Source of the DNA: an uncultured Planctomycetota bacterium
Lineage (GTDB): Bacteria > Planctomycetota > Planctomycetia > Isosphaerales > Isosphaeraceae
Reading direction: 5' to 3'
Assembly (NCBI GenBank): GCA_963823665.1
Contig: CAWGMQ010000004.1
Location: forward strand, 1,184,001-1,248,000
Length of the DNA stretch: 64,000 bases
Below the pieces are notes generated by a model, which saw nothing but the letters and a program-made list of their open reading frames with translations, was not told where the DNA came from and searched no databases. Made by a program: the position numbers and the translations under genes. Below, piece after piece: positions 15,815 to 26,407 of this stretch (the first letter of the stretch is position 1; every line of letters starts with the position of its first letter).

Positions 15815-16663
15815 TCACTCCGCGGAAGTAGCGGCGGGCCATTGCAATTTGAAGGGGATTTCTGTCATTCCGATTTCCGTGAATATTCGCAATGCGCACT
15901 CAAAAACCCTTGCTTGTTCACGGCAGGCGGGGCTGTCAGCCAGTTCGAAATAGGCTCCCGCGCGAGATATCTCTTGTGGCAGCAGTTCACTCCTTTGGGT
16001 ACACATGACAAATCGATCTCGCTTTCCAAGGTCTATCACGCTCGACTGGTCTCCTACAAATAACAGGCGATCGGGAAAAACGATGGCGAAGCGGGTGCGT
16101 CCGATATTAACCAAAGTGTTGCTCGAATTCTTGAGATCGTAATTCAAAAGAAGTTGATTAGGATTAGGCACTCCCCAACCTGGTACAAATGCATTCTTTA
16201 CAAGCTCTATTCCGTTTATGTAATGCTTTAGCACAGAAGGAAAGCCCAGTTGCCGCTCATCGGGATACCTCGCAAAGTGTCTCACACGAGCCTTCAACTC
16301 TTTCTTGAGTCGCGTGACACTTTTCTCGTAAATGATGTGAGGATAGTGCATCAGGTCGAATGGGATGTCGCTTACGTTCTGTGTCAATAGGATTGTCCGC
16401 TTACCCAGCGCGTGAGCGTAACCGGTTTCGTAAAAAACGTTCGCATTTCTTCCTGTCATGTCGGCAACGATGATGTCAGCTTTTGAGATTTGGTTGTAAA
16501 TACGCTCAAGCATACTCTCATGAAACATCTGTTCATCGACCCTCGCGCAATACGTCCCCGCTTCCTGGCACGCAGCTTTGATGCCGAGCTTGTAGACATC
16601 GTCGAACGCTGTATCAAACGGCATGAGCACAAACACGAATGGTTTTGGGGTCGTGCCTGACAT
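15815..16663 (-). CDS. Nucleoside 2-deoxyribosyltransferase/TIR-like domain protein with an unknown C-terminal domain
   Basis: FVLMPF, ADIIVADMTGRNANVFYETGYAHALGK, IPFDL; RBS GGGAGG; visibly AT-richer than the flanks. Confidence 0.8.
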   Translation of the reverse strand: MSGTTPKPFVFVLMPFDTAFDDVYKLGIKAACQEAGTYCARVDEQMFHESMLERIYNQISKADIIVADMTGRNANVFYETGYAHALGKRTILLTQNVSDIPFDLMHYPHIIYEKSVTRLKKELKARVRHFARYPDERQLGFPSVLKHYINGIELVKNAFVPGWGVPNPNQLLLNYDLKNSSNTLVNIGRTRFAIVFPDRLLFVGDQSSVIDLGKRDRFVMCTQRSELLPQEISRAGAYFELADSPACREQARVFECALRIFTEIGMTEIPFKLQWPAATSAE

Positions 16664-17751
16664 CTCGTAGCGCCTCCCCGCTAAGGCGCTCCCGTTGTCG
16701 GCGCCTTCAATACGCCAACGAGCGCCTGAACCTGTCACGAGCGGCAAGGTTGACCGGGTCTCAGCGCTCCATGGTAACGAACGGGCTGTCGCGAATCATC
16801 ACGCTGGAAAGAGCCGTGTCAAATCGATCGAGGCTTGGTTCCGTGGACACCCTGTCGATGTTGTTCTGCCAGTCCCACGGATTCCCGGCCGCGAAACCGC
16901 CACCGGACCCGCCAGGAATCACGCGGGCCAAGGATCAGCCTCAACACTGGCTTTGCTGAGATGTCAGCTTCAACGCTTCGTTGGGCTGTTTGAGATACGG
17001 CTCGCGCATGAGCAGAAAAAGCGGCAAGCCAATGGACACACCAACTAACAGCGTTCCGACCACGGGCGCCCAAAGCTGCTTCATGTTCAGCCGACGGCCC
17101 TCAGCGAGAACGAAACCCATGGGCGGAGAGCGTGCCGCCGGCGGTCCACGGTTTTAGAGGACCGCCGCGGCTTGCGGCGTTCGGCATCGCGCCCGACATT
17201 CGTGCAACAGGCTAACCGCGCCAAAGCATCGCCCCAGCCGAGCAACATCCGCCGGACTCCCTTGGCTGGGATCGTGCCAGCATCGCGCAGCCGGATCGGG
17301 GGACAGGATCGGGGAACAGCACGAACGGGGCCGCGTCGCCCCAGGGATTGCTCCCTGGGGCTCCCACAGATCCTGCAGACGGTGTCTCGACCGCGCTGAT
17401 CTCCAGCGACGGAGGCGAAGCTCATTGACAGATACTCTGCCAGCATCAGGAGCCCAACCGCATCGACACGTCCGATGGTAGGAGCTTGACGGCGAATACC
17501 AGACATGTTGAACTTGTGTTTAACCTCCGCGTCGGACCAGCTCCATGGCTCCAGGGTCGGCCATTGCATCGCGAATTCTCTCGGCTTAACCACTTACGAC
17601 GATTCGTATCGCCGCTCGATTTTTCCTTTCAGCGATCAGAGTTCGAAAGGTAATCCTCCCCGCCGAGGAGTGCCGGATCCGCCCGGCGCGGCTTTCCTCG
17701 CGCGGGCCGAGAAGCCGCAACAACCCCGGTATCTGATCCCCGTGAGGAGGC

Positions 17752-18411
17752 ATGGCGATGACAGCGACGACGACTCAGCCCGGACTGTTCGACGACATGC
17801 GTGATCGCGCCAAGCAAGGGCCGGCGTGGTCTCGGTTCAACCAGATGTACGGCCCCGCTATCCATCGGCAACTGGCGCGCTGGGGCTTACAGGAGGCCGA
17901 CATTGAAGATGTCAGGCAGGAGGTCCTGCTGGCTGTCTTCAGCGTCATGCCCGGGTTCCGCTATGACCCGTCAGAGTCGTTCCGGGGCTACCTCTACCAG
18001 GTGGTGCGGTCGAAGTATCTGACCCACATCAGACGTCCAGCGAACCGGGCCAAGGCACGAGGGGGCACCTCGACGGCCCAGTTCCTCGCTGCGCAGCCCG
18101 ACACGCGCGGTTCATCGCGGGATGCCGAGGCGCGACTCCGCCAGGCCCTGCCCGAGCAGGAGGTCCCGCTCGACGAGGAGCTCTGGAAGCAGGATTGCAG
18201 CAAGGCGGTCCTGACCTGGGCTGTCAAGCGCGTCCGGGTCAGGAGCGAGATGCACGATCGCTCGTTCGAGATCTATGTCCGGACAACGATCAACGGCGAA
18301 GCGGTGGCGGAAGTCGCTGCGTCTCTCGGTGAGTCCCCCGGCGCGGTCCACGTGGCCAGGTCGCGGGTCAAGAAGCTGGTCAAGGCAGAGTTGGAGCATT
18401 TCGTCGACTGA
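17752..18411 (+). CDS. ECF sigma-70 factor (kinase-associated type)
   Basis: AWSRFNQMY, EDVRQEV, FRYDPSESFRGYL, region 4 GAVHVARSRV; RBS GAGGAGG. Confidence 0.9.
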   Translation: MAMTATTTQPGLFDDMRDRAKQGPAWSRFNQMYGPAIHRQLARWGLQEADIEDVRQEVLLAVFSVMPGFRYDPSESFRGYLYQVVRSKYLTHIRRPANRAKARGGTSTAQFLAAQPDTRGSSRDAEARLRQALPEQEVPLDEELWKQDCSKAVLTWAVKRVRVRSEMHDRSFEIYVRTTINGEAVAEVAASLGESPGAVHVARSRVKKLVKAELEHFVD

Positions 18412-18526
18412 AAAAACCCGGGCGGGCGGGGCAGACTCACCGTATCCGCCTCTTCGCACGGACATCTCCCTGGTCGATTGGTCGGCAGCCGGTCATGCAA
18501 AGGGTTCAGGCCCTGGAGGTGCCACC

Positions 18527-20623
18527 GTGAGTTCGGGCAGTATCGACGTCAGCAATCCGGGCCGTCGACTCGTCGAGCAGCATGAAGGTCTGCCACTGAA
18601 CTTCCTGGACCACCCGAATGATCTCGAGCCAGGTCTCGAGGGGCGGATCGGTCGGCGCGGCGACGGTTACTACCTGGACGTGCATAAGAAGCTCACGCCG
18701 GGGGCAATGGCGGTCGTGTTCCTTGCGACTGAGAAGTCGCTTGTCCCGGGGACGCAGACTTGGGCCAGTCGTAAAGTCGTCGTCAAGGTGATCCGCGCCA
18801 ACCTCGCCTCCGACCCGCTCATTCTTCAGCGCTTCGTTCGCGAGCTCGAGGCGCTCCACGAGATCCCGTCACAGTTCATCGTCACCGCTCACCGTGTGAG
18901 TGAGTGGAAGAATCTTCCCTACTTTGTGATGGAGTATCTCGACGGCGGCGACCTGACAGCGTGGCGGCGGCAGTTCGACAAGTCTCCCCGCCACGCCGAG
19001 TTGGTCAGGGTCCTGATCGCTGTGACCAGCGGACTTCGCGACATGCATCTCAAGGGGCGGAAGCACCGCGACCTGAAGCCCGCCAACGTCCTGTGGAATC
19101 GCACCGAGGACTTGTTCAAGGTCGGCGATCTCGGGCTCGTGAAGCACGAGCGGCCCGGCCAGCCCCAGACGCACATCCCGGGTCGCCCCTTCGGCTCCGT
19201 GGGTTACATCCCGCCCGAACAGTTCGACGGCGAGGAGCCCGGCATCCGCGGCGACCTGTACTCGCTGGGGTGCCTCGCGTACTTCCTCGCCTCGGGCGAC
19301 GCGCCGTTCCAGGACGAGGTGGCCAACCGCCGCGCGAGACCCATGCCGCTCCGAGGACGGGAACCTCCTTTGCCAGAGCCCCTCGTCAAGCTCATTGAGA
19401 AGCTGATGGCGCGGAAACCGCGTATGCGCCCGGCCTCCGCGAGCGAGGTGCTCAAGGAGCTCGAAGAGCTTCAGATGCAGCCCGCAACGCCGGCTCCTCG
19501 CCCGCGTGCTCGATTCCTGCCCAGGGTCGCCGCGATCGCCGTCGCCGCGGGCCTGGTGGTCGTCGCGATGGCCTGGGCCCTTCGCGACAGGCTGCAGCAG
19601 CTCCTCGCAATGGACCCAAATACGAAGTCGAGAGTCTCGGAAGTGCCGGGACACCACGCGGCACCTCCGCCCGGGCCGGCCCAAAAGGACCTGGGCACCG
19701 TGACTGTTCAACGGCCGGTTCAAAGCGAGGCGAGCGTCCCGGTGCCACCGAAACGGGTCGAACCGCCCGATGACGGCAAGCTATTTGGTCCCCGGCCCGG
19801 CGACCCTTCCGAGCCGCCGACCGATCTCGCGAATGTCGAGGCAGCCACCGACGCGGCGAGTCCAGGTCGCCCGGTCCTTTCCCTGGTCGATCTCAACCCC
19901 GACCCGAAGTTCTTGATGGGCGACATCGGGGATATCCAGACATCGGGCGCAGGCGGGTCAATCCAGTATGCTGTCTCATTCGAGGGTCGGGCACCCCACT
20001 TCTGGGACAAGCAGTTCGTCGCGCCTGACGACCATCCTGGCACCCTCGCCATCCGTTCTGACAAGCACGCGGGGTTCGTCGGCGCCCTGTGGCTCGCAAA
20101 GGGATCCCGCACGCCGGGACAGAGATGGTGGGAACAGGAAGACGCCGGCCGCGACCTTCGCCGCATCCGCCCGACCCACGTGACCTGGGATGTCTCGGTC
20201 TCCGATGTCGAGCCGAAGGAGGCTTCCGTGCGTGTGGAGTTCTTCCTCGGCGTCGAGGACCGGTGGGTCTGGGTGCCCGAACAAGACAATCCCGACCGTG
20301 CCCGCAAGGTGGACATCAAACGCCCCGACTCGCTCGGCCGTCTCACCCTCGCCGTCGACAACCAAACATTCAAGGACGGCGAGAGCCGGACGCTCCGAGC
20401 CCAGTTCCCGACTCGAGAAGACGCCAAGCTTTCGAACGTCCGCGGGCTCTTCGGCTGGTCCATCACGGCCCCGACGTCCCCGGTCTCCGGCGCCGCGACG
20501 GCCCTGAGATTCACGATCTCCAACGTCCGTTATATCCGGGAGGACCCGACCCATGACTCATCCCGCGACCAGACCCAGCCCCGAACTGAACCCGCACCAT
20601 CGCCCGCGGCCGGCACGCCGTGA
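18527..20623 (+). CDS. Membrane Ser/Thr kinase with an extracytoplasmic CBM-like beta-sandwich domain
   Basis: GTG 18527 with GGAGG; GAMAVV, VVVK, HRDLKPANVL, DLG, YIPPE; TM VAAIAVAAGLVVVAMAWAL; Pro-rich linker; MGDIGDI module. Confidence 0.85.
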   Translation: MSSGSIDVSNPGRRLVEQHEGLPLNFLDHPNDLEPGLEGRIGRRGDGYYLDVHKKLTPGAMAVVFLATEKSLVPGTQTWASRKVVVKVIRANLASDPLILQRFVRELEALHEIPSQFIVTAHRVSEWKNLPYFVMEYLDGGDLTAWRRQFDKSPRHAELVRVLIAVTSGLRDMHLKGRKHRDLKPANVLWNRTEDLFKVGDLGLVKHERPGQPQTHIPGRPFGSVGYIPPEQFDGEEPGIRGDLYSLGCLAYFLASGDAPFQDEVANRRARPMPLRGREPPLPEPLVKLIEKLMARKPRMRPASASEVLKELEELQMQPATPAPRPRARFLPRVAAIAVAAGLVVVAMAWALRDRLQQLLAMDPNTKSRVSEVPGHHAAPPPGPAQKDLGTVTVQRPVQSEASVPVPPKRVEPPDDGKLFGPRPGDPSEPPTDLANVEAATDAASPGRPVLSLVDLNPDPKFLMGDIGDIQTSGAGGSIQYAVSFEGRAPHFWDKQFVAPDDHPGTLAIRSDKHAGFVGALWLAKGSRTPGQRWWEQEDAGRDLRRIRPTHVTWDVSVSDVEPKEASVRVEFFLGVEDRWVWVPEQDNPDRARKVDIKRPDSLGRLTLAVDNQTFKDGESRTLRAQFPTREDAKLSNVRGLFGWSITAPTSPVSGAATALRFTISNVRYIREDPTHDSSRDQTQPRTEPAPSPAAGTP

Positions 20624-22832
20624 GACGGCCGCGCGGAGGCTCCGCACCTCCGCCCTGGCCCTGGCGTCGGCGATCGCCGCGGCCGCCCCGGCGCCAGCGC
20701 TCGCCGCCCAGGAACCAGCCCCCCCGCCGGTCCTCCGAGCCACGCCGGCGCGATGGGCCGAGACCCTCGACCGCCTGCGATGGGTCTGCTACACCTCGCC
20801 CGACGGCAACTTGGCGCAGCACGTCGAGCCCTCGCTCCACGCCATCAAGCAAGACCTCCGCCTGCTCCGCCGCGCCGGATTCGATGGAATCATCACATAT
20901 AAATCTTCAGGAGTGATGGGCCGCGATCTCGCCGAGGTCGCCCAGGCACTGGGGTACCGAGGCCTGCTCATGGGCATCTGGGATCCGCGCTCGACGGACG
21001 AGCGCGAGCAGGCGATGGCGTGCAAGGATCTACCGGTCGTATTCGGATACATCGTTGGCAATGAGGGGTACCGCAAGCGTTACTCGCTTGACGACCTCCG
21101 ATCGGCGATCGACACGATCCGGGCCGCGACCGGCAAGCCGACCACCACAAGCGAAGAGATCGATGACTATACCGACAAGGGTCTCCGGGACATCGGCGAC
21201 TTCGTCTGTGCGAACGTACACCCATTCTATCACAACAAGCCGGGCGTCGAGGATGCCGTCAATTTCACGGTCGGGGCCTACCGCGAGTTGAGCCAGCAGG
21301 CCAAGCGAACGGTCTTCTTCAAGGAGGTCGGATTGCCGACGGCGGGCGTGAGGGGCGTCAGCGAGCAGGCGCAGCTCCTGTATTACCAGTCGTTAGAGCG
21401 GAAACGCGCCGACGGCAAGGTGCAGTTCGCTTACTTCGAGGCGTTCGATCTGGCGAGCAAAGTGGACACGCCCGTCGAGCCCCACTGGGGGCTCTTCAAA
21501 GTGCGACTCGCGCAGGGAGGCGGGCTGGAGGCAGTGCCCAAGCCGCTGGGTCGCGAACTGCTGGATCACAACCGCGGCGTCCGCCTGCCGGATGATGCCG
21601 GCCAGATGCTGCCCACGTCAGCCCGGTCGATGATGTCCGTCGACAGCCTCTACGTCGCCTCCGGGATCACCGGAGACGTCGGCGACGTGAAGGTCGGCGC
21701 CGGCGGCGAGGGCGCCGTCGCGATCTCGTACCGGCCGCAGGGCCGCGGGCCGCACGAATGGGATTTTAAGTACGTGAGCAACGAGGAGATCGCCCGGCCG
21801 GCGCGACATGGCGGTGCAACCTGGCTTAGCCCCCCCGGACACTGGGGCGATTCTCCCTCCGGCGGCTACGACCTGCGGCCGCTCCAGCCGGTCGCCATCA
21901 CCTTCGAGGCGCGGAGCACGGGGCCCCCGGTGTGGGTGCACTTCTCCGCCGGTGGCGTGCGGTGGCGATGGCGGCTCGATCCCTGGCGCCACTGGGTACG
22001 CTCCGAAGTCCTCTACCCCGACACGCTCCCCCCCATCTACCTGGGCACCTATCCACTGTCGAACAACTGGCAAAAGGTCACCTGCCGGCTCCCGCTTCTC
22101 AGCCCCGACCAGCTCCGCCGGGTCGTCGGCGCATTCAGCACGGCGGTCGCCTGGGCCGAGAATGGCCTCGGGCCCGACCCGGCCACGCACCCCAGGGCCG
22201 CGGATTTCCAATTCGAGGTGCGCAAGATCCAGTACCTCTCCGCCGCGGCCGCGCCCGCCGACCTCCCGCTCCCCCGCCACGGGACGTTCGCCGTTTACAC
22301 CGACGCGGCCGCGCCCGACAATCATTTCGTGCCCTCCGGCCTCATGGGAGACATGGGCGACGTCGCGGTCAATACCGCCTGCCCGCTCCTGCCGCACTCG
22401 GGGAAGACGTGCATCAGCCTGACCTACGCCGCCAAGGGCCTCGAGCCACGGTCGCCCCACGACTACCCCGGCCCCTGCCGCTGGGCCGGCGTCTACTTCC
22501 AACACCCCGCGAATAACGCCGGGGCCGACGCCCACTGGGCCGGTGTCGGCTTCGACTTGAGCGCCTACAGCCGCGTCGAATTCTTCGCCCGCGCCGACCG
22601 CCCGTGCCTGGTCGAATTCCTGGTCGCCGGCCAGACCGGGCCCTACGGCGATTCACAGGCCTTCCCCCGCAAGAAGGCCTTCTCGCTCGGCACCGAGTAC
22701 GCCCCATACGTCATCGAGCTCGACGGCACCGACTTGAGCCACACCATCGGCGGTTTCGGCGCGGTGCTCACGATGGACAATAACAAGGAGGCTGTGACCA
22801 TTTATATGGATGATATTTCATATAAAAGGTGA
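20553..22832 (+). CDS. Exported GH17-like beta-glucanase/transglycosylase with two C-terminal CBM-like modules
   Basis: RBS GGAGG; Arg-rich signal peptide; VGNE, KEVGLPT, FEAFD, EPHWGLF motifs; two SG..GD.GDV modules. Confidence 0.85.
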   Translation: MTHPATRPSPELNPHHRPRPARRETAARRLRTSALALASAIAAAAPAPALAAQEPAPPPVLRATPARWAETLDRLRWVCYTSPDGNLAQHVEPSLHAIKQDLRLLRRAGFDGIITYKSSGVMGRDLAEVAQALGYRGLLMGIWDPRSTDEREQAMACKDLPVVFGYIVGNEGYRKRYSLDDLRSAIDTIRAATGKPTTTSEEIDDYTDKGLRDIGDFVCANVHPFYHNKPGVEDAVNFTVGAYRELSQQAKRTVFFKEVGLPTAGVRGVSEQAQLLYYQSLERKRADGKVQFAYFEAFDLASKVDTPVEPHWGLFKVRLAQGGGLEAVPKPLGRELLDHNRGVRLPDDAGQMLPTSARSMMSVDSLYVASGITGDVGDVKVGAGGEGAVAISYRPQGRGPHEWDFKYVSNEEIARPARHGGATWLSPPGHWGDSPSGGYDLRPLQPVAITFEARSTGPPVWVHFSAGGVRWRWRLDPWRHWVRSEVLYPDTLPPIYLGTYPLSNNWQKVTCRLPLLSPDQLRRVVGAFSTAVAWAENGLGPDPATHPRAADFQFEVRKIQYLSAAAAPADLPLPRHGTFAVYTDAAAPDNHFVPSGLMGDMGDVAVNTACPLLPHSGKTCISLTYAAKGLEPRSPHDYPGPCRWAGVYFQHPANNAGADAHWAGVGFDLSAYSRVEFFARADRPCLVEFLVAGQTGPYGDSQAFPRKKAFSLGTEYAPYVIELDGTDLSHTIGGFGAVLTMDNNKEAVTIYMDDISYKR

Positions 22833-22896
22833 TGTGTTGATCCGCCGATCGCCCGCCCGCGCACCGGATCATGCCGGGCGCGGCAGGGCGATCGCG

Positions 22897-23868
22897 TCAG
22901 GGGCGAAGGGGAGCCGCCGGCGACGTGCCCCGGCGAACGCCCCCATCCGGGATCCGGCGGACCCACGCCTCGGACACAGGCCGGACGGCCATCGCCAGGC
23001 AGACGCCGTCGCGGCCGATGGCCGGGTCGCGGCCCAGGTCGGCGGCCCCGATGACGTCCAGCCTGTGTCCGGCGCAGAACCAGGCGCTGTTCGCATCGAT
23101 GACCTCGGCGGCGAGTCCCCGGGCGAGCCGGGCTCGCTGGGCGATCCAGCCGATCCCGCGGAAGTAGTCGATCGCCGCGTTCGCCGCGCCCGCGGCCACT
23201 TGGACCATCAGGCACGCCGCGCCGCCGGCGCCCGGCGGCTTGGCCGCCAGCGCGGCCGGCCCCATCGCCCGCCGTAGGCCAGTAACCACCTCCTCCAGAT
23301 CGGCAGGGACATACCGGCCACCCGACCACTCCTGGAAGAGCCCGACGTAGCGCTCGATGGCCAGCGCCACAGCGAGCTCGTCGCAGCGCTGCAGGGCGTC
23401 GGCCGCCTCCCGCGCCAGAGCAGAGATCTCGTCCACAAATCGGCCGGCCTCCGGGTGGTCCAGCATCTCCGAGAGCTGCGTCGGCGCGTGATGCCGCGGA
23501 CCCGTCGGGTCGAAGGCCCACACGAACCGCCGAAACAGCCAGCGTCGATCACACGCCAGACGCCGGACACCGACGTGGCCAGACCGACCCGTTCGCACCA
23601 TCACTACGCCCCCGCAGACGAGCGCTGCAACGTCCTGCGTCCCCACCAACCGTCCCTTCGCCCGCGTTCGCTCTGTCCGGAGCGCGCGGATCAGCACCTC
23701 GCGGCGAGACGGAATCTCGCCCGTCTCGAGAAAGTAGCCACTCCCCGCGCGGAGTACGCCCTGGTTGGCCGACACCGAGATGCCGGCACCGCTCGGGGCA
23801 CGCCAGGCGAAGGTCTCCAAAGCTGAGGCCAGCTCGTCGATCACCGGCAGACTTCGGCTCATTTTCAT
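22897..23868 (-). CDS. GHMP-family sugar kinase-like protein with permuted motif order
   Basis: RBS GAAGGAG before ATG 23868; APSGAGISVSA (motif II), ER...GTQD....GG, KPPGAGG (motif III); motif-I-like AGHRLDVIGAAD...GVCLAMAV lies at the C-terminus. Confidence 0.7.
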   Translation of the reverse strand: MKMSRSLPVIDELASALETFAWRAPSGAGISVSANQGVLRAGSGYFLETGEIPSRREVLIRALRTERTRAKGRLVGTQDVAALVCGGVVMVRTGRSGHVGVRRLACDRRWLFRRFVWAFDPTGPRHHAPTQLSEMLDHPEAGRFVDEISALAREAADALQRCDELAVALAIERYVGLFQEWSGGRYVPADLEEVVTGLRRAMGPAALAAKPPGAGGAACLMVQVAAGAANAAIDYFRGIGWIAQRARLARGLAAEVIDANSAWFCAGHRLDVIGAADLGRDPAIGRDGVCLAMAVRPVSEAWVRRIPDGGVRRGTSPAAPLRP

Positions 23869-24136
23869 TGCTCCTTCCTCCCCTGGAAAAGGACCCGGGC
23901 GCGAGCCCGCAGCGGCCGACCCGGCCAGGGGAGGTCCGGGCGGGTCTCGCGACCCGGCGCCGGGCCTGGAGACACTACCTGTTGAGGGCCGGCAATTTAC
24001 AGACATTCCGTCGGCGACTCGTAAAAAAGGTCTGTCGAACGCGTAGTTGTACGTTGGAGCACGCGGCGACGCCGCGCGGCCGGCCCGGACGGGACTGTCT
24101 CGCCCGGGGCCACGCATCCACACCGGAACGCTTGCG

Positions 24137-24847
24137 ATGAAGAACAATGACCGCTGGAACGACGTCGAGCGATTGCTGTCGGTTGTCGCCGACGTTGAAA
24201 TGAACCTGATCCTGTGGGGGCCCAGCGGCACGGGCAAGTCGCACATGGCCCGCCGCCACGGGCTTGCTCCCGGCCAGCACGTCTACACAATCACGCTCAC
24301 CGACGAGACCCCAGCAGCCGAGCTCCGCGGCCTCTTCCTGCCGGGAGACCACGGCTTTCGCTGGCAGCACGGTCCGGCCATCCGCGCCTGGCTCGACGGC
24401 GGCCGCCTCGTGCTCAATGAAGTGGACAAAGCATCAAGTGACGTCCTGTCCTTCCTGCTGGCGCTGATGGACCACTCCGCGGTGGCCGGAATGTCGCTGC
24501 CATCCGGCGAGGAGGTTGCCCCGGCGCCGGGTTTCCACGTGGTGGCAACCTCGAACGTTTCGCCCGACCAGCTTCCCGCGGCCCTTCGCGACCGGTTCGC
24601 GGCGTGCGTCCACGTAGACACGGTGCACGTCGAAGCCTTGCGGCAGCTCCCGCAGACGTTGCGCGAGGTCGCGGCGAACACCTCGGTCATCGAACAGGCT
24701 CAGCGCCGGGTGAGCGTGCGCTCATGGCACGCCTTCGCGGCCCTGATGGAGCACTGCGGCGACGAGGGTTTCGCCGCCCGCGCGGTGTTCGGTCCCAGGG
24801 CCGCCGACGTCCTTGCCGCGATGCGCATCGGTCGCGTCGGGCAGTAA
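24137..24847 (+). CDS. MoxR/CbbQ/CobS-like AAA+ ATPase
   Basis: GPSGTGKS Walker A, LVLNEVD Walker B variant, ATSN sensor I, ALRDRF arginine finger, SVR sensor II. Confidence 0.9.
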   Translation: MKNNDRWNDVERLLSVVADVEMNLILWGPSGTGKSHMARRHGLAPGQHVYTITLTDETPAAELRGLFLPGDHGFRWQHGPAIRAWLDGGRLVLNEVDKASSDVLSFLLALMDHSAVAGMSLPSGEEVAPAPGFHVVATSNVSPDQLPAALRDRFAACVHVDTVHVEALRQLPQTLREVAANTSVIEQAQRRVSVRSWHAFAALMEHCGDEGFAARAVFGPRAADVLAAMRIGRVGQ

Positions 24848-24913
24848 TCCCCCAGGCGCCGGTCGCGCGGAGGCCGGCCCAAGTCGATTCTAACCGGTAC
24901 GAGGAACGCGACC

Positions 24914-26407
24914 ATGAGCGATTACCCGCGACCTGAATCCATCGACGTCTACCCGCTGCCCGAAGCCCTCGGCCGAGAACGTGGAGCCGGATGGGCGATC
25001 TTCCGTTCGCCGATGGCGGGGGTGGATCTCCCGTCGCGCCGCATGTTCGTGCCGCTGGGTCCCGGGCCGGACGATTACTGCGCCCGCGTCCATGAGCTCG
25101 GCCACGTCGCCTGGACCCGCGGCGATCCCGGGAAGCTCTCCGCACGCCTGGGCGTTGACGAGTTGGTGTACCAGGCCGTCGAGGACAACCGCATCGAGGG
25201 CTGGCTCTCCCGAATCGCCGGCGTGAACCTGTTCCCGCTCGGCCTGGCCCTTGACCGGGTGCGCGACGCGGCCGGGCGGATCGTCGCCTTGCGAGACCAC
25301 CGATCGGCCTGTCTGCTCCTGATCGCCACAACCCACGCGGCCGCGGGGCCCGTTGTCCGCGCCACCCTCGAACGTGCCGCGCGGAAGTCGCTGGGTTTCC
25401 GCGTGGCCCTCGAGGTCGCCGACGGCGCCACGGTCCGACTCTGGCGACACCCGCGGCCCACACAGGATCAGACCGGGCGCGTCGCCCGCTGGGTCCAGCG
25501 CCGTCTCGAAGCGGTCCATGATCACGAACCCCACGGCGAAACGTCCGCGAGCACCGGCGATGCCTGGTCGTCTCCGATGCCGGATTGCCCCAGACCACCA
25601 CTGCGACAGCACCTGATCCGCCGCGCCAAAGCCATCCGAGGCGCCCTCCGGGAGGCACTTGGCCTCGTCCCCGTCCCCTCGGAGGACGAGCCGACAGACG
25701 ACTTTCCCTCCGCCGGCTCGCTGACTGCACTTCCGGATCGCTCCGCTATCCACGATGGACTCGAACTCCTGCGGCTCGCCCTGACCATGGACGCGGGCGC
25801 CGGTCACAACTTCGTCCCGTGGGGACCGATGGACGTCCAAGAGCCCGAGCGGGTCATCGCCCACGCCGGTCGCCTGGGGCGATGGAAGCGGCCGACCGAG
25901 GAGGGCGTTTATCTCCGCTATCCTCATCGCTACCTGTCGGACCGCCGGGTATTCGCGCACCGCCGGAGGGTGCCCGGCGGCGGCGTGCTCATCGACGCCA
26001 GCGGGAGCATGCACCTCTCGGCTGGCGACGTGGATCGGGTCGTCGCGGCCGCGCCGGGGGCGCACGTGCTCGGCTACGCGGCGTCAACCCACCGGGGCGT
26101 CCTCCGTGTCCTGGCGCGCGACGGCCGCCGCGTCGCCCCGGAGGACTGCGACTTCTCCGCCGTCGGCACATCCAACGTCATCGACCTCCCCGCGCTCGAA
26201 TACCTTGCCCGGCTCCGCGTCCAGCCCAAGCTCTGGGTCTCGGACGGGTTGGTAACCGGGATCGGGGACCGTACCGGCTCCGAGAACTTGCGCCAGGTCC
26301 ATTCGTTGACCGAATCGAAGGGCATTCGGCGACTGGCCAGCCTCGATGAGGCGGTCGCGCTGCTCAATCGGCTGTCCCGTCGCGAGGTCTCCGTGAATAC
26401 CTGTTAG
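24914..26407 (+). CDS. HExxH metallopeptidase-like + VWA (CobT-like) protein
   Basis: HELGH followed by EDNRI; VLIDASGSM MIDAS motif; WVSDG. Confidence 0.8.
   Translation: MSDYPRPESIDVYPLPEALGRERGAGWAIFRSPMAGVDLPSRRMFVPLGPGPDDYCARVHELGHVAWTRGDPGKLSARLGVDELVYQAVEDNRIEGWLSRIAGVNLFPLGLALDRVRDAAGRIVALRDHRSACLLLIATTHAAAGPVVRATLERAARKSLGFRVALEVADGATVRLWRHPRPTQDQTGRVARWVQRRLEAVHDHEPHGETSASTGDAWSSPMPDCPRPPLRQHLIRRAKAIRGALREALGLVPVPSEDEPTDDFPSAGSLTALPDRSAIHDGLELLRLALTMDAGAGHNFVPWGPMDVQEPERVIAHAGRLGRWKRPTEEGVYLRYPHRYLSDRRVFAHRRRVPGGGVLIDASGSMHLSAGDVDRVVAAAPGAHVLGYAASTHRGVLRVLARDGRRVAPEDCDFSAVGTSNVIDLPALEYLARLRVQPKLWVSDGLVTGIGDRTGSENLRQVHSLTESKGIRRLASLDEAVALLNRLSRREVSVNTC

Follow-up and report, generated by a model that had tools for sequence, protein, structure and literature searches.

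A naturally permuted GHMP kinase of the HddA/fucokinase type from Planctomycetota and the family to which it belongs

Results

The locus and its reading frame

The whole stretch of DNA analysed here (hereafter the window) comprises 64,000 nucleotides from the genome of an uncultured Planctomycetota bacterium (G000:C4:1184001-1248000). On its minus strand, an open reading frame at 22897..23868 encodes a permuted GHMP-type kinase of 323 aa (P0001), or of 321 aa when translation starts at the second ATG at 23862; the 321-aa form is the database protein P0002, and a homologue from another source (P0003) is 82% identical to P0001. The codon-position GC of this frame (0.75/0.57/0.84) fits that of a coding frame. 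The preliminary description of this DNA had credited the gene with a strong ribosome-binding site, and the printed sequence contains two overlapping Shine-Dalgarno-like words, GGAGG and AGGAG (23871..23881, minus strand), each located 8 nt before an in-frame ATG (23868 and 23862). The motifs that it had pointed out likewise stand in the translation: APSGAGISVSA at residues 24-34, ER at 66-67, GTQDVAALVCGG at 76-87, KPPGAGGAAC at 210-219 and AGHRLDVIGAAD..GRDGVCLAMAV at 266-295.

Genes on the plus strand at 17752-22832 converge on P0001; they encode an ECF sigma factor, a Ser/Thr kinase and a protein of 759 aa that weakly resembles GH17 and carries unannotated modules at its C-terminus. Between the stop codon of P0001 and the GH17-like gene there is a 24-nt inverted repeat (I12, 22846..22894, 79% complementary), one of 141 such pairs in this GC-rich region, which is possibly a terminator-like hairpin shared by the two genes. 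Divergently from P0001, the plus strand at 24047-26407 encodes a MoxR/AAA_5 ATPase followed by a 497-aa protein without a Pfam match, whose DASGS motif we take to be vWA-like. A nucleoside 2-deoxyribosyltransferase-like gene (E 5e-5, below the Pfam cut-off) is located at 15815-16747 on the minus strand. The neighbouring MoxR-like AAA ATPase and GH17-like protein point to no sugar pathway. The GH17-like protein was considered as a conserved partner of the kinase and rejected; the resemblance between the proteins of the window and of locus L044 is only distant (28% over 169 aa). Elsewhere in the same genome there are three PF00288 matches above the cut-off (C10:2112697-2113368, C11:902674 and C3:1653123), none of them at this locus, and P0001 is thus an additional GHMP gene and not the sole one.

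A family of proteins with the GHMP fold

As a single sequence, P0001 had no match in Pfam, NCBIfam or the PDB sequences, and no curated NCBIfam model matched P0001 or P0003, the two members scanned; standard annotation is therefore nearly blind to this family. An exhaustive HMMER search yielded 75 representative matches at E<=0.001, of which 60 have the core together with the tail described below, and 55 have a core longer than 180 aa. A word-based homologue search found 2-3 members only. From P0001, P0003 and 47 of the 75 matches we made a 49-sequence alignment (A2), omitting fragments, four long forms and the mevalonate-kinase-like P0077; the core and tail HMMs were derived from it, and the median pairwise identity of the aligned members is 32%.

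That the protein belongs to the GHMP kinases, as had been proposed from its motifs, was borne out by alignment-based profiles and by the fold. In an alignment-based search, 20 of the 49 members matched GHMP_kinases_N at E<=0.1, and the A2 profile matched solved HddA-type kinases from approximately residue 100 onward (4n3o 101-324, E 2.5e-9). ESM Atlas placed P0001 among GHMP clusters (0.93-0.94). The top clusters there consist of unnamed proteins of 226-262 aa from Planctomycetota, Verrucomicrobiota and Bacteroidota, below the length of a whole GHMP kinase, which are possibly N-terminally shortened forms or fragments. The AlphaFold2 model of P0001 (pLDDT 93.2, pTM 0.89) has the two-domain GHMP fold; Foldseek ranked the heptokinase WcbL first and gave a probability of 1.00 to WcbL, MVK and GalK. 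With VIA, residues 6-257 of the model were aligned with residues 685-949 of FKP (Z 18.8, rmsd 3.4, 242 aligned). The 37 chains at Z>=8, which are GHMP-fold rows, include none that is aligned past residue 259 of the model, as is expected of a sequential aligner when the protein is a permutant. The predicted homodimer of P0001 scored 0.47, and one control 0.30; we count this prediction neither for nor against dimerization.

Circularly permuted order of the conserved segments

GHMP kinases such as galactokinase, mevalonate kinase and HddA have a textbook fold, the N-terminal domain of which is treated as fixed. The canonical order of their motifs is I-II-III, whereas in the present family it is II-III-I in all of the 60 matches with both parts. 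We compared the family with 30 canonical-order GHMP ORFs. In a profile-profile alignment (hhalign), residues 16-253 of P0001 correspond to canonical residues 93-323 with a probability of 99.5, and residues 261-311 correspond to canonical residues 2-54 with a probability of 49 within the full protein; the tail profile alone against the canonical N-terminus gave a probability of 83 (E 8.4e-6). The chain may thus be divided into a segment B (aa 16-253; 23110..23823, minus strand; canonical ~93-323 by hhalign and VIA), which starts with the strand ahead of motif II and ends with the last strand of the canonical protein, and a segment A (aa 261-306; 22951..23088, minus strand; canonical ~2-50 by hhalign), which holds motif I with R269 and D277 and then the next long strand. 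The canonical C-terminal strand and a new linker of ~7 residues to the canonical N-terminus (23089..23118, minus strand) form a beta-hairpin in the model (DSSP E253-258 / E261-273). The pLDDT over residues 251-300 is 98, the model packs the relocated motif I well into the fold, and the spacer from G251 to R269 is 16-18 residues long in 45 of the 49 members. Given the homology, the confidence of the model and this short, near-constant linker, the tail probably occupies the slot of motif I.

The tail profile found its best match at motif I, ahead of the core, in all 30 canonical ORFs, with low single scores (-3 to 12 bits), and in the reverse test the profile of the canonical N-terminal part fell within the last 100 residues of 46 of the 49 members. 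The junction is bridged without gaps by soil contigs from two studies, X4 record 15 (22963-23174, 7 differences) and X3 record 9 (23039-23189, 6 differences); their depth is 2-2.5, and no single piece spans the whole gene. The permuted order could in principle be an assembly artefact or a chance resemblance to the motif, a reading favoured by the absence of a family match for P0001 alone and by the weak score of its isolated tail, which was equalled by 3 of 300 shuffles. Against it are the uniform order in every informative match, the relatives in six genome records and at least four metagenome contigs, the reverse test and the gap-free bridging by contigs of different studies. We regard it as extremely improbable, and it was rejected because independent homologues have the same order.

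P0001 was thus confirmed to be a naturally occurring, circularly permuted version of a GHMP kinase of the HddA/fucokinase type. The proposed relocation of the motif-I strands from the N- to the C-terminus within one open frame agrees with the tail profile, hhalign and the hairpin in the model; the homologues of the same order that the preliminary description had suggested looking for exist, the tail following the core in every one, and the misassembly of which it had warned is contradicted by the two bridging contigs and by these homologues. The permutation itself therefore stands, but three points had escaped the earlier account: the family has at least 55 full-length members, ~38 canonical residues have been lost, and the permuted domain also occurs fused with a guanylate kinase (GMK).

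Residues of the active site

Conservation was counted in the 49-sequence alignment, and the roles of residues were mapped by profile alignment to WcbL and FKP. The phosphate-binding loop of motif II (23764..23790, minus strand) has the family form GxG[FL]SxSS, in which the GxG...SS core is retained (G27 in 37/49, G29 in 49/49, S33 in 47/49 and S34 in 43/49); P0001 itself has Ala at position 34, the second Ser of the loop. The loop has been remodelled in other respects: the leading Pro is kept in 8 of the 49 permutants versus 30/30 canonical proteins, and the third Gly (position 31), present in 29/30 canonical proteins, is found in 6/49, being mostly Ser or Ala. At 23632..23673 (minus strand) are encoded E66, the equivalent of FKP E751, and Q78-D79, in which the Asp is the putative catalytic base (equivalent to WcbL D163 and FKP D762); both E66 and D79 are invariant (49/49). 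The residue before the catalytic Asp is Q in 26, N in 12 and D in 6 of the 49, and Q in P0001. Motif III, KPPGAG(G/A), follows at 23218..23241 (minus strand; K210 45/49, G213 and G215 49/49) and retains the KxxGAG form. Motif I with the catalytic Arg and the sugar-binding Asp is present as well, but is C-terminal: R269 (WcbL R13, FKP R592), D277 (WcbL D22) and G288 are each found in 49/49.

In WcbL, R13, D22, Q162, D163 and S118-S120 are essential, and R13A, D22A, D163A and the SSS-to-AAA replacement are dead (PMC4691232). Similarly, R592, D762 and S719/S720 are described in the same roles in FKP, with E751 as the metal-ligand counterpart (PMC11982464). All of the residues known to be necessary for HddA-type catalysis are thus, as judged from the alignment, kept in the permutants. 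The contacts of AMP-PNP listed for WcbL are mostly with phosphate and ribose (PMC4691232), which implies that catalysis need not depend on the base pocket.

Loss of the base-pocket segment

In the profile-profile alignment, canonical residues ~55-92 (~38 residues) have no counterpart in the permutants. The leader and tail together have a median length of 58 residues (37-107, with 34 of the 49 under 70) versus 80-95 in the 30 canonical proteins, and the model of P0001 has no helix before residue 32 or after residue 280. The strand-helix segment that walls the nucleotide base ahead of motif II, which we take to be a left-handed beta-alpha-beta crossover in canonical proteins, is therefore not found, the permutants being ~30 residues short of it. 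Canonical D60 (26/30) and L79 (27/30) fall in the lost segment and, when mapped by their offset from the motif-I Arg, correspond to FKP D644/M645 and P666/I669, that is, to four of five modelled adenine contacts. These FKP contacts come from a model and not from a liganded structure (PMC11982464).

A profile of the lost segment was run against the 49 proteins and against 10 loci and 22 kb of the window translated in six frames; its best score was 8.2 bits, below 26 of the 30 leave-one-out controls. A highly diverged copy could have escaped this search, which likewise gave no separate small gene for the segment in these loci. Judged by sequence, the permutants retain the ligands of phosphate and sugar and have lost the wall of the base pocket. 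Loss of the wall together with the third Gly of the loop could abolish ATP binding.

Distribution and phylogeny of the family

Relatives were found in six genome records (five of Planctomycetota and one of Verrucomicrobiaceae), in one more genome and in at least four metagenome contigs. In the family of the host, the permutant is present in 2 of 121 genomes and was not found in G029 of the same genus (84% complete). Among 401 sampled genomes of the phylum, with five candidates scored per genome, a full-length match was obtained in G000 only, and around the other carriers the permutant occurs in 1/301, 2/267 and 1/145 genomes. No relatives were found in plasmid and phage collections with P0004 as the query or in viral contigs with A3 and A5, and the genome and metagenome contigs gave no loci with P0001 or A1. 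The GC content of the gene is within 0.05 of that of its locus in 8/8 cases. We infer that the permuted gene is rare, patchy accessory cargo, mainly of PVC bacteria.

In a quick, midpoint-drawn tree with a limited canonical sample, all 49 permutants lie on one side of a branch and the 31 other rows on the other (SH-aLRT 99*), which fits a single origin; the end branches within the family are long. One member (P0009) carries a C-terminal extension of ~125 aa (aa 305-428) without a Pfam match. At G033:C74:6546-7423 (L008, L039), a homologue of the same order is split into three frames; the apparent fragmentation of further genes there points to sequencing indels. Short representative matches were considered as split forms of the gene and rejected, as they were fragment-like on inspection.

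A guanylate kinase domain fused to the permutant

In two of the 75 matches, P0021 (aa 1-200) and P0039 (aa 26-219), a permuted guanylate kinase domain is fused ahead of the permuted GHMP domain. The two proteins are 44% identical to each other, are named guanylate kinase by their source and have the cluster mates P0078 and P0079. Compared with 16 canonical GMKs, residues 86-219 of P0039 correspond to GMK 2-122 (hhalign probability 99.5), and the preceding residues 26-85 to GMK 129-184 (probability 84.7 and E 6.6e-6 when this piece is aligned by itself, and 73.9 as part of the whole domain). Phmmer gave the same swapped second stretch, weakly, and in shuffle tests the observed score was reached by 4/300 (P0039) and 1/300 (P0021). 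The domain has the P-loop and the GMP-binding motif TTR..R.GE, and departs from the canonical order of core, NMP, LID and last strand. In the model of the fusion the GHMP part is resolved, the pLDDT of the GMK part is <50 over most of residues 97-200, where three rows are aligned, and VIA returned no GMK row. This second putative permutation, based on two sequences, is less firm than that of the GHMP domain.

No GHMP part was found in 23 other long GMK proteins. We found no support for the possibility that the fusion is an intermediate of an ancestral insertion: the pair branches from within the family (FastTree support 88-91), and the deepest branch differs between trees. Nesting at this modest support favours a later fusion over an ancestral insertion.

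Genomic neighbourhood of the permuted genes

Eleven independent loci were compared (the window, L039-L046, L048 and L052; L047 is a near copy of L044). The scan covered ORFs chosen by a codon-bias rule, several loci are short, and the upstream neighbour is visible in nine. In three of these nine, a divergent SorC/Sugar-bind-like regulator lies 150-350 bp away (L041:1347-2564, L046:2475-3635 and L052:79-1233, all on the minus strand; Sugar-bind E 2.7e-4 to 6.5e-3); the three regulators score below the Pfam cut-off for Sugar-bind, which relatives of the regulators pass. In four, a co-oriented sugar-related gene lies directly upstream, namely an NTP transferase (L042), a DUF4922 gene (L044), a methyltransferase with a canonical GHMP gene (L045) and a PIG-L deacetylase (L039). 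The remaining two are the window, with its divergent ATPase, and L040, in which an Ig/cadherin-repeat protein is encoded upstream and SIS and BadF-type genes downstream. No neighbour is common to all loci. HddA/WcbL kinases sit in an operon with genes for phosphoheptose isomerase, phosphatase and guanylyltransferase; of such partners, the scanned ORFs, some from short loci, offer no more than a single NTP transferase (L042) and a SIS protein that looks unrelated (L040).

Eleven of 267 genomes from one order carry the SorC/Sugar-bind-like subfamily (relatives at L058-L067), ten of them without the permutant, and it was not found in the carriers G000, G033, G521, G523 and G525. Elsewhere its members adjoin GNAT and glutamine amidotransferase genes, a GH88 hydrolase or an inositol monophosphatase. 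Upstream of the NTP transferase-kinase pair of L042 is a gene for an XRE-HTH protein with an unknown C-terminal part of 350 aa (L056:12242-13597, plus strand).

Cassettes combining ThiF, ubiquitin-fold and Pup-ligase-type genes are familiar from comparative genomics, although the literature searched here yielded no account of them. Genes for ThiF, ubiquitin-like or Pup-ligase proteins occur within ~10 kb of the permutant in three of the eleven loci (L039, L041 and L044), with a ThiF and UEV-like pair in L039. L053:4401-14327 and L055:2066-11795, one a Planctomycetaceae and the other a Verrucomicrobiaceae record, hold a cassette of ThiF, a proteasomal-type AAA ATPase and two Pup-ligase-family genes; a YukD-like ubiquitin-fold protein was detected weakly, in L055 only.

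Discussion

Proposed function of the permuted kinase

Our preferred reading, to which we give about an even chance of being right, is that the permutant is an active GHMP-fold sugar (or sugar-phosphate) 1-kinase that arose from the HddA/fucokinase branch and has relaxed specificity for the nucleotide base. A short hairpin now links the old C- and N-termini and the chain starts inside the N-terminal domain, which would be the outcome of one ancient circular permutation. The sugar would be bound between D277 of the tail, the Q, N or D at position 78, and D79; D79 would deprotonate the anomeric OH, and R269 and the GxGxSxSS loop would hold the Mg-triphosphate. With the base pocket open, NTPs (ATP or GTP) would probably be accepted with little base specificity. 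The resulting sugar-1-phosphate may enter a neighbouring nucleotidyltransferase-type step of NDP-sugar synthesis or serve as a signal to the divergently encoded SorC-like regulator.

Alternatively, the enzyme may have given up nucleotides for another phosphoryl donor, with PPi, polyphosphate or a PRPP-like pyrophosphorylated sugar held by the retained loop, and the base pocket would have been lost for this reason. It is the stretch with the conserved base-contact positions that every member lacks, the phosphate and sugar ligands are invariant, and motif II is remodelled across the whole family; furthermore, there is a precedent within the fold, ForT, to which the model of P0001 aligns with Z 14.6 and which binds the pyrophosphate of PRPP at the site of the ATP beta and gamma phosphates (PMC8183095). 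However, both sequence and fold bring the permutants closest to ATP-dependent sugar kinases and not to ForT, the guanylate kinase fusion retains a link to nucleotides, and the neighbours scanned include no enzyme of PPi or polyphosphate; we consider a switch of donor rather unlikely. The missing wall might also come from elsewhere, either in trans (a partner or a second copy) or in cis (the fused guanylate kinase domain), leaving an ordinary but regulated ATP-dependent kinase. In fact, the permuted GMK of P0021 and P0039 ends exactly at the would-be joint of the lost segment, and HddA-type kinases are dimers (PMC4691232). Nevertheless, the lost-segment profile drew a blank in the proteins, loci and window sequence searched, the loci share no neighbour, and the fusion is confined to two nested members, so that a supplied wall seems quite improbable.

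It is also conceivable that the protein is not a kinase in vivo, but a sugar-phosphate-binding sensor, or a sugar-1-phosphate phosphatase or mutase, on regulatory or conflict islands. The rare, patchy and fast-diverging nature of the family, as seen in its long end branches, would be in line with this, as would the ThiF, ubiquitin-like and Pup-ligase genes near three of the eleven loci and the regulators near four (L041, L046, L052 and, with the XRE-HTH protein, L042). On the other hand, the whole array of catalytic residues (Arg, Asp, Asp, Glu, Ser-Ser and Lys) is kept at ~32% identity and would be needless in a pure sensor; we therefore hold a non-kinase role to be unlikely. A more far-reaching proposal, which we offer as speculation with a rather low chance of being correct, is that the permutation excised the adenine-binding helix and thereby produced a base-free (PPi/polyphosphate- or any-NTP-dependent) sugar phosphotransferase that makes a signal for SorC-like regulators on accessory islands of PVC bacteria, and that the order GMK-C, GMK-N, GHMP-C, GHMP-N in the fusion records head-to-tail joining of genes followed by reopening.

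Two features set this family apart: it has lost the base pocket, apparently without losing catalysis, and it includes the doubly permuted fusion. If the preferred reading of a base-indifferent kinase is correct, or if the enzyme uses polyphosphate, it would be an anomeric kinase useful for the production of sugar-1-phosphates. The permutants offer a means of testing to what extent a GHMP kinase can do without its nucleotide pocket and whether a permutation can switch the phosphoryl donor, and two separately permuted kinases in one chain are an unusual case for the origin of permutations.

Comparison with known systems

In the literature searched, which excluded supplements, permutation databases and most subscription papers, we found no description of permuted GHMP kinases, of a SorC-GHMP pairing or of a permuted guanylate kinase; in passages of the Lipocone preprint, PMC1079889 and PMC9503650, the terms GHMP and permutation occur in unrelated places. 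The best relative by profile and Foldseek is the HddA-type WcbL, whose R13, D22, D163 and Ser cluster have invariant or near-invariant counterparts in the permutants. WcbL has the order I-II-III, whereas the permutants have II-III-I, ~38 residues fewer and a GAAD loop one residue shorter than GGGTD; furthermore, the heptose-specifying Q162 is kept in only 26/49 permutants, and an operon of the heptose pathway was not seen in the scanned loci. The fucokinase domain of Bacteroides FKP (PDB 9iit, 9iip) is the top VIA match, and its R592, E751, D762 and S719/S720 have counterparts in the permutants. The NTP-transferase neighbour and the GMK fusions suggest that a link to guanine nucleotides is also shared with FKP. 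In contrast, the modelled adenine-side residues 644-669 of FKP are lost in the permutants, which moreover lack the pyrophosphorylase fusion and are permuted in order. Because the motif order differs and the base-pocket segment is absent, the permutants are placed outside both the HddA and the fucokinase families, despite their homology.

The nearest canonical-order relatives found are uncharacterised GHMP kinases of Planctomycetota (L010-L038, APxRIDLAGGT.D), which have in common with the permutants the RID form of motif I and His 126 (25/30), and differ in their ordinary order, their intact base-pocket segment and the long branch that separates them from the permutants. The C-glycoside synthase ForT (PDB 6yqq) also has the GHMP fold, and its loop binds a non-nucleotide pyrophosphate; it is more distant (Z 14.6, 13% identity), homoserine-kinase-like and of other chemistry, and aligns in the ordinary order. 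Finally, the fused domain of P0021 and P0039 shares the P-loop and the TTR..R.GE motif with guanylate kinase (PF00625), but differs from it in that the LID and the last strand-helix precede the P-loop and in that a GHMP domain is attached.
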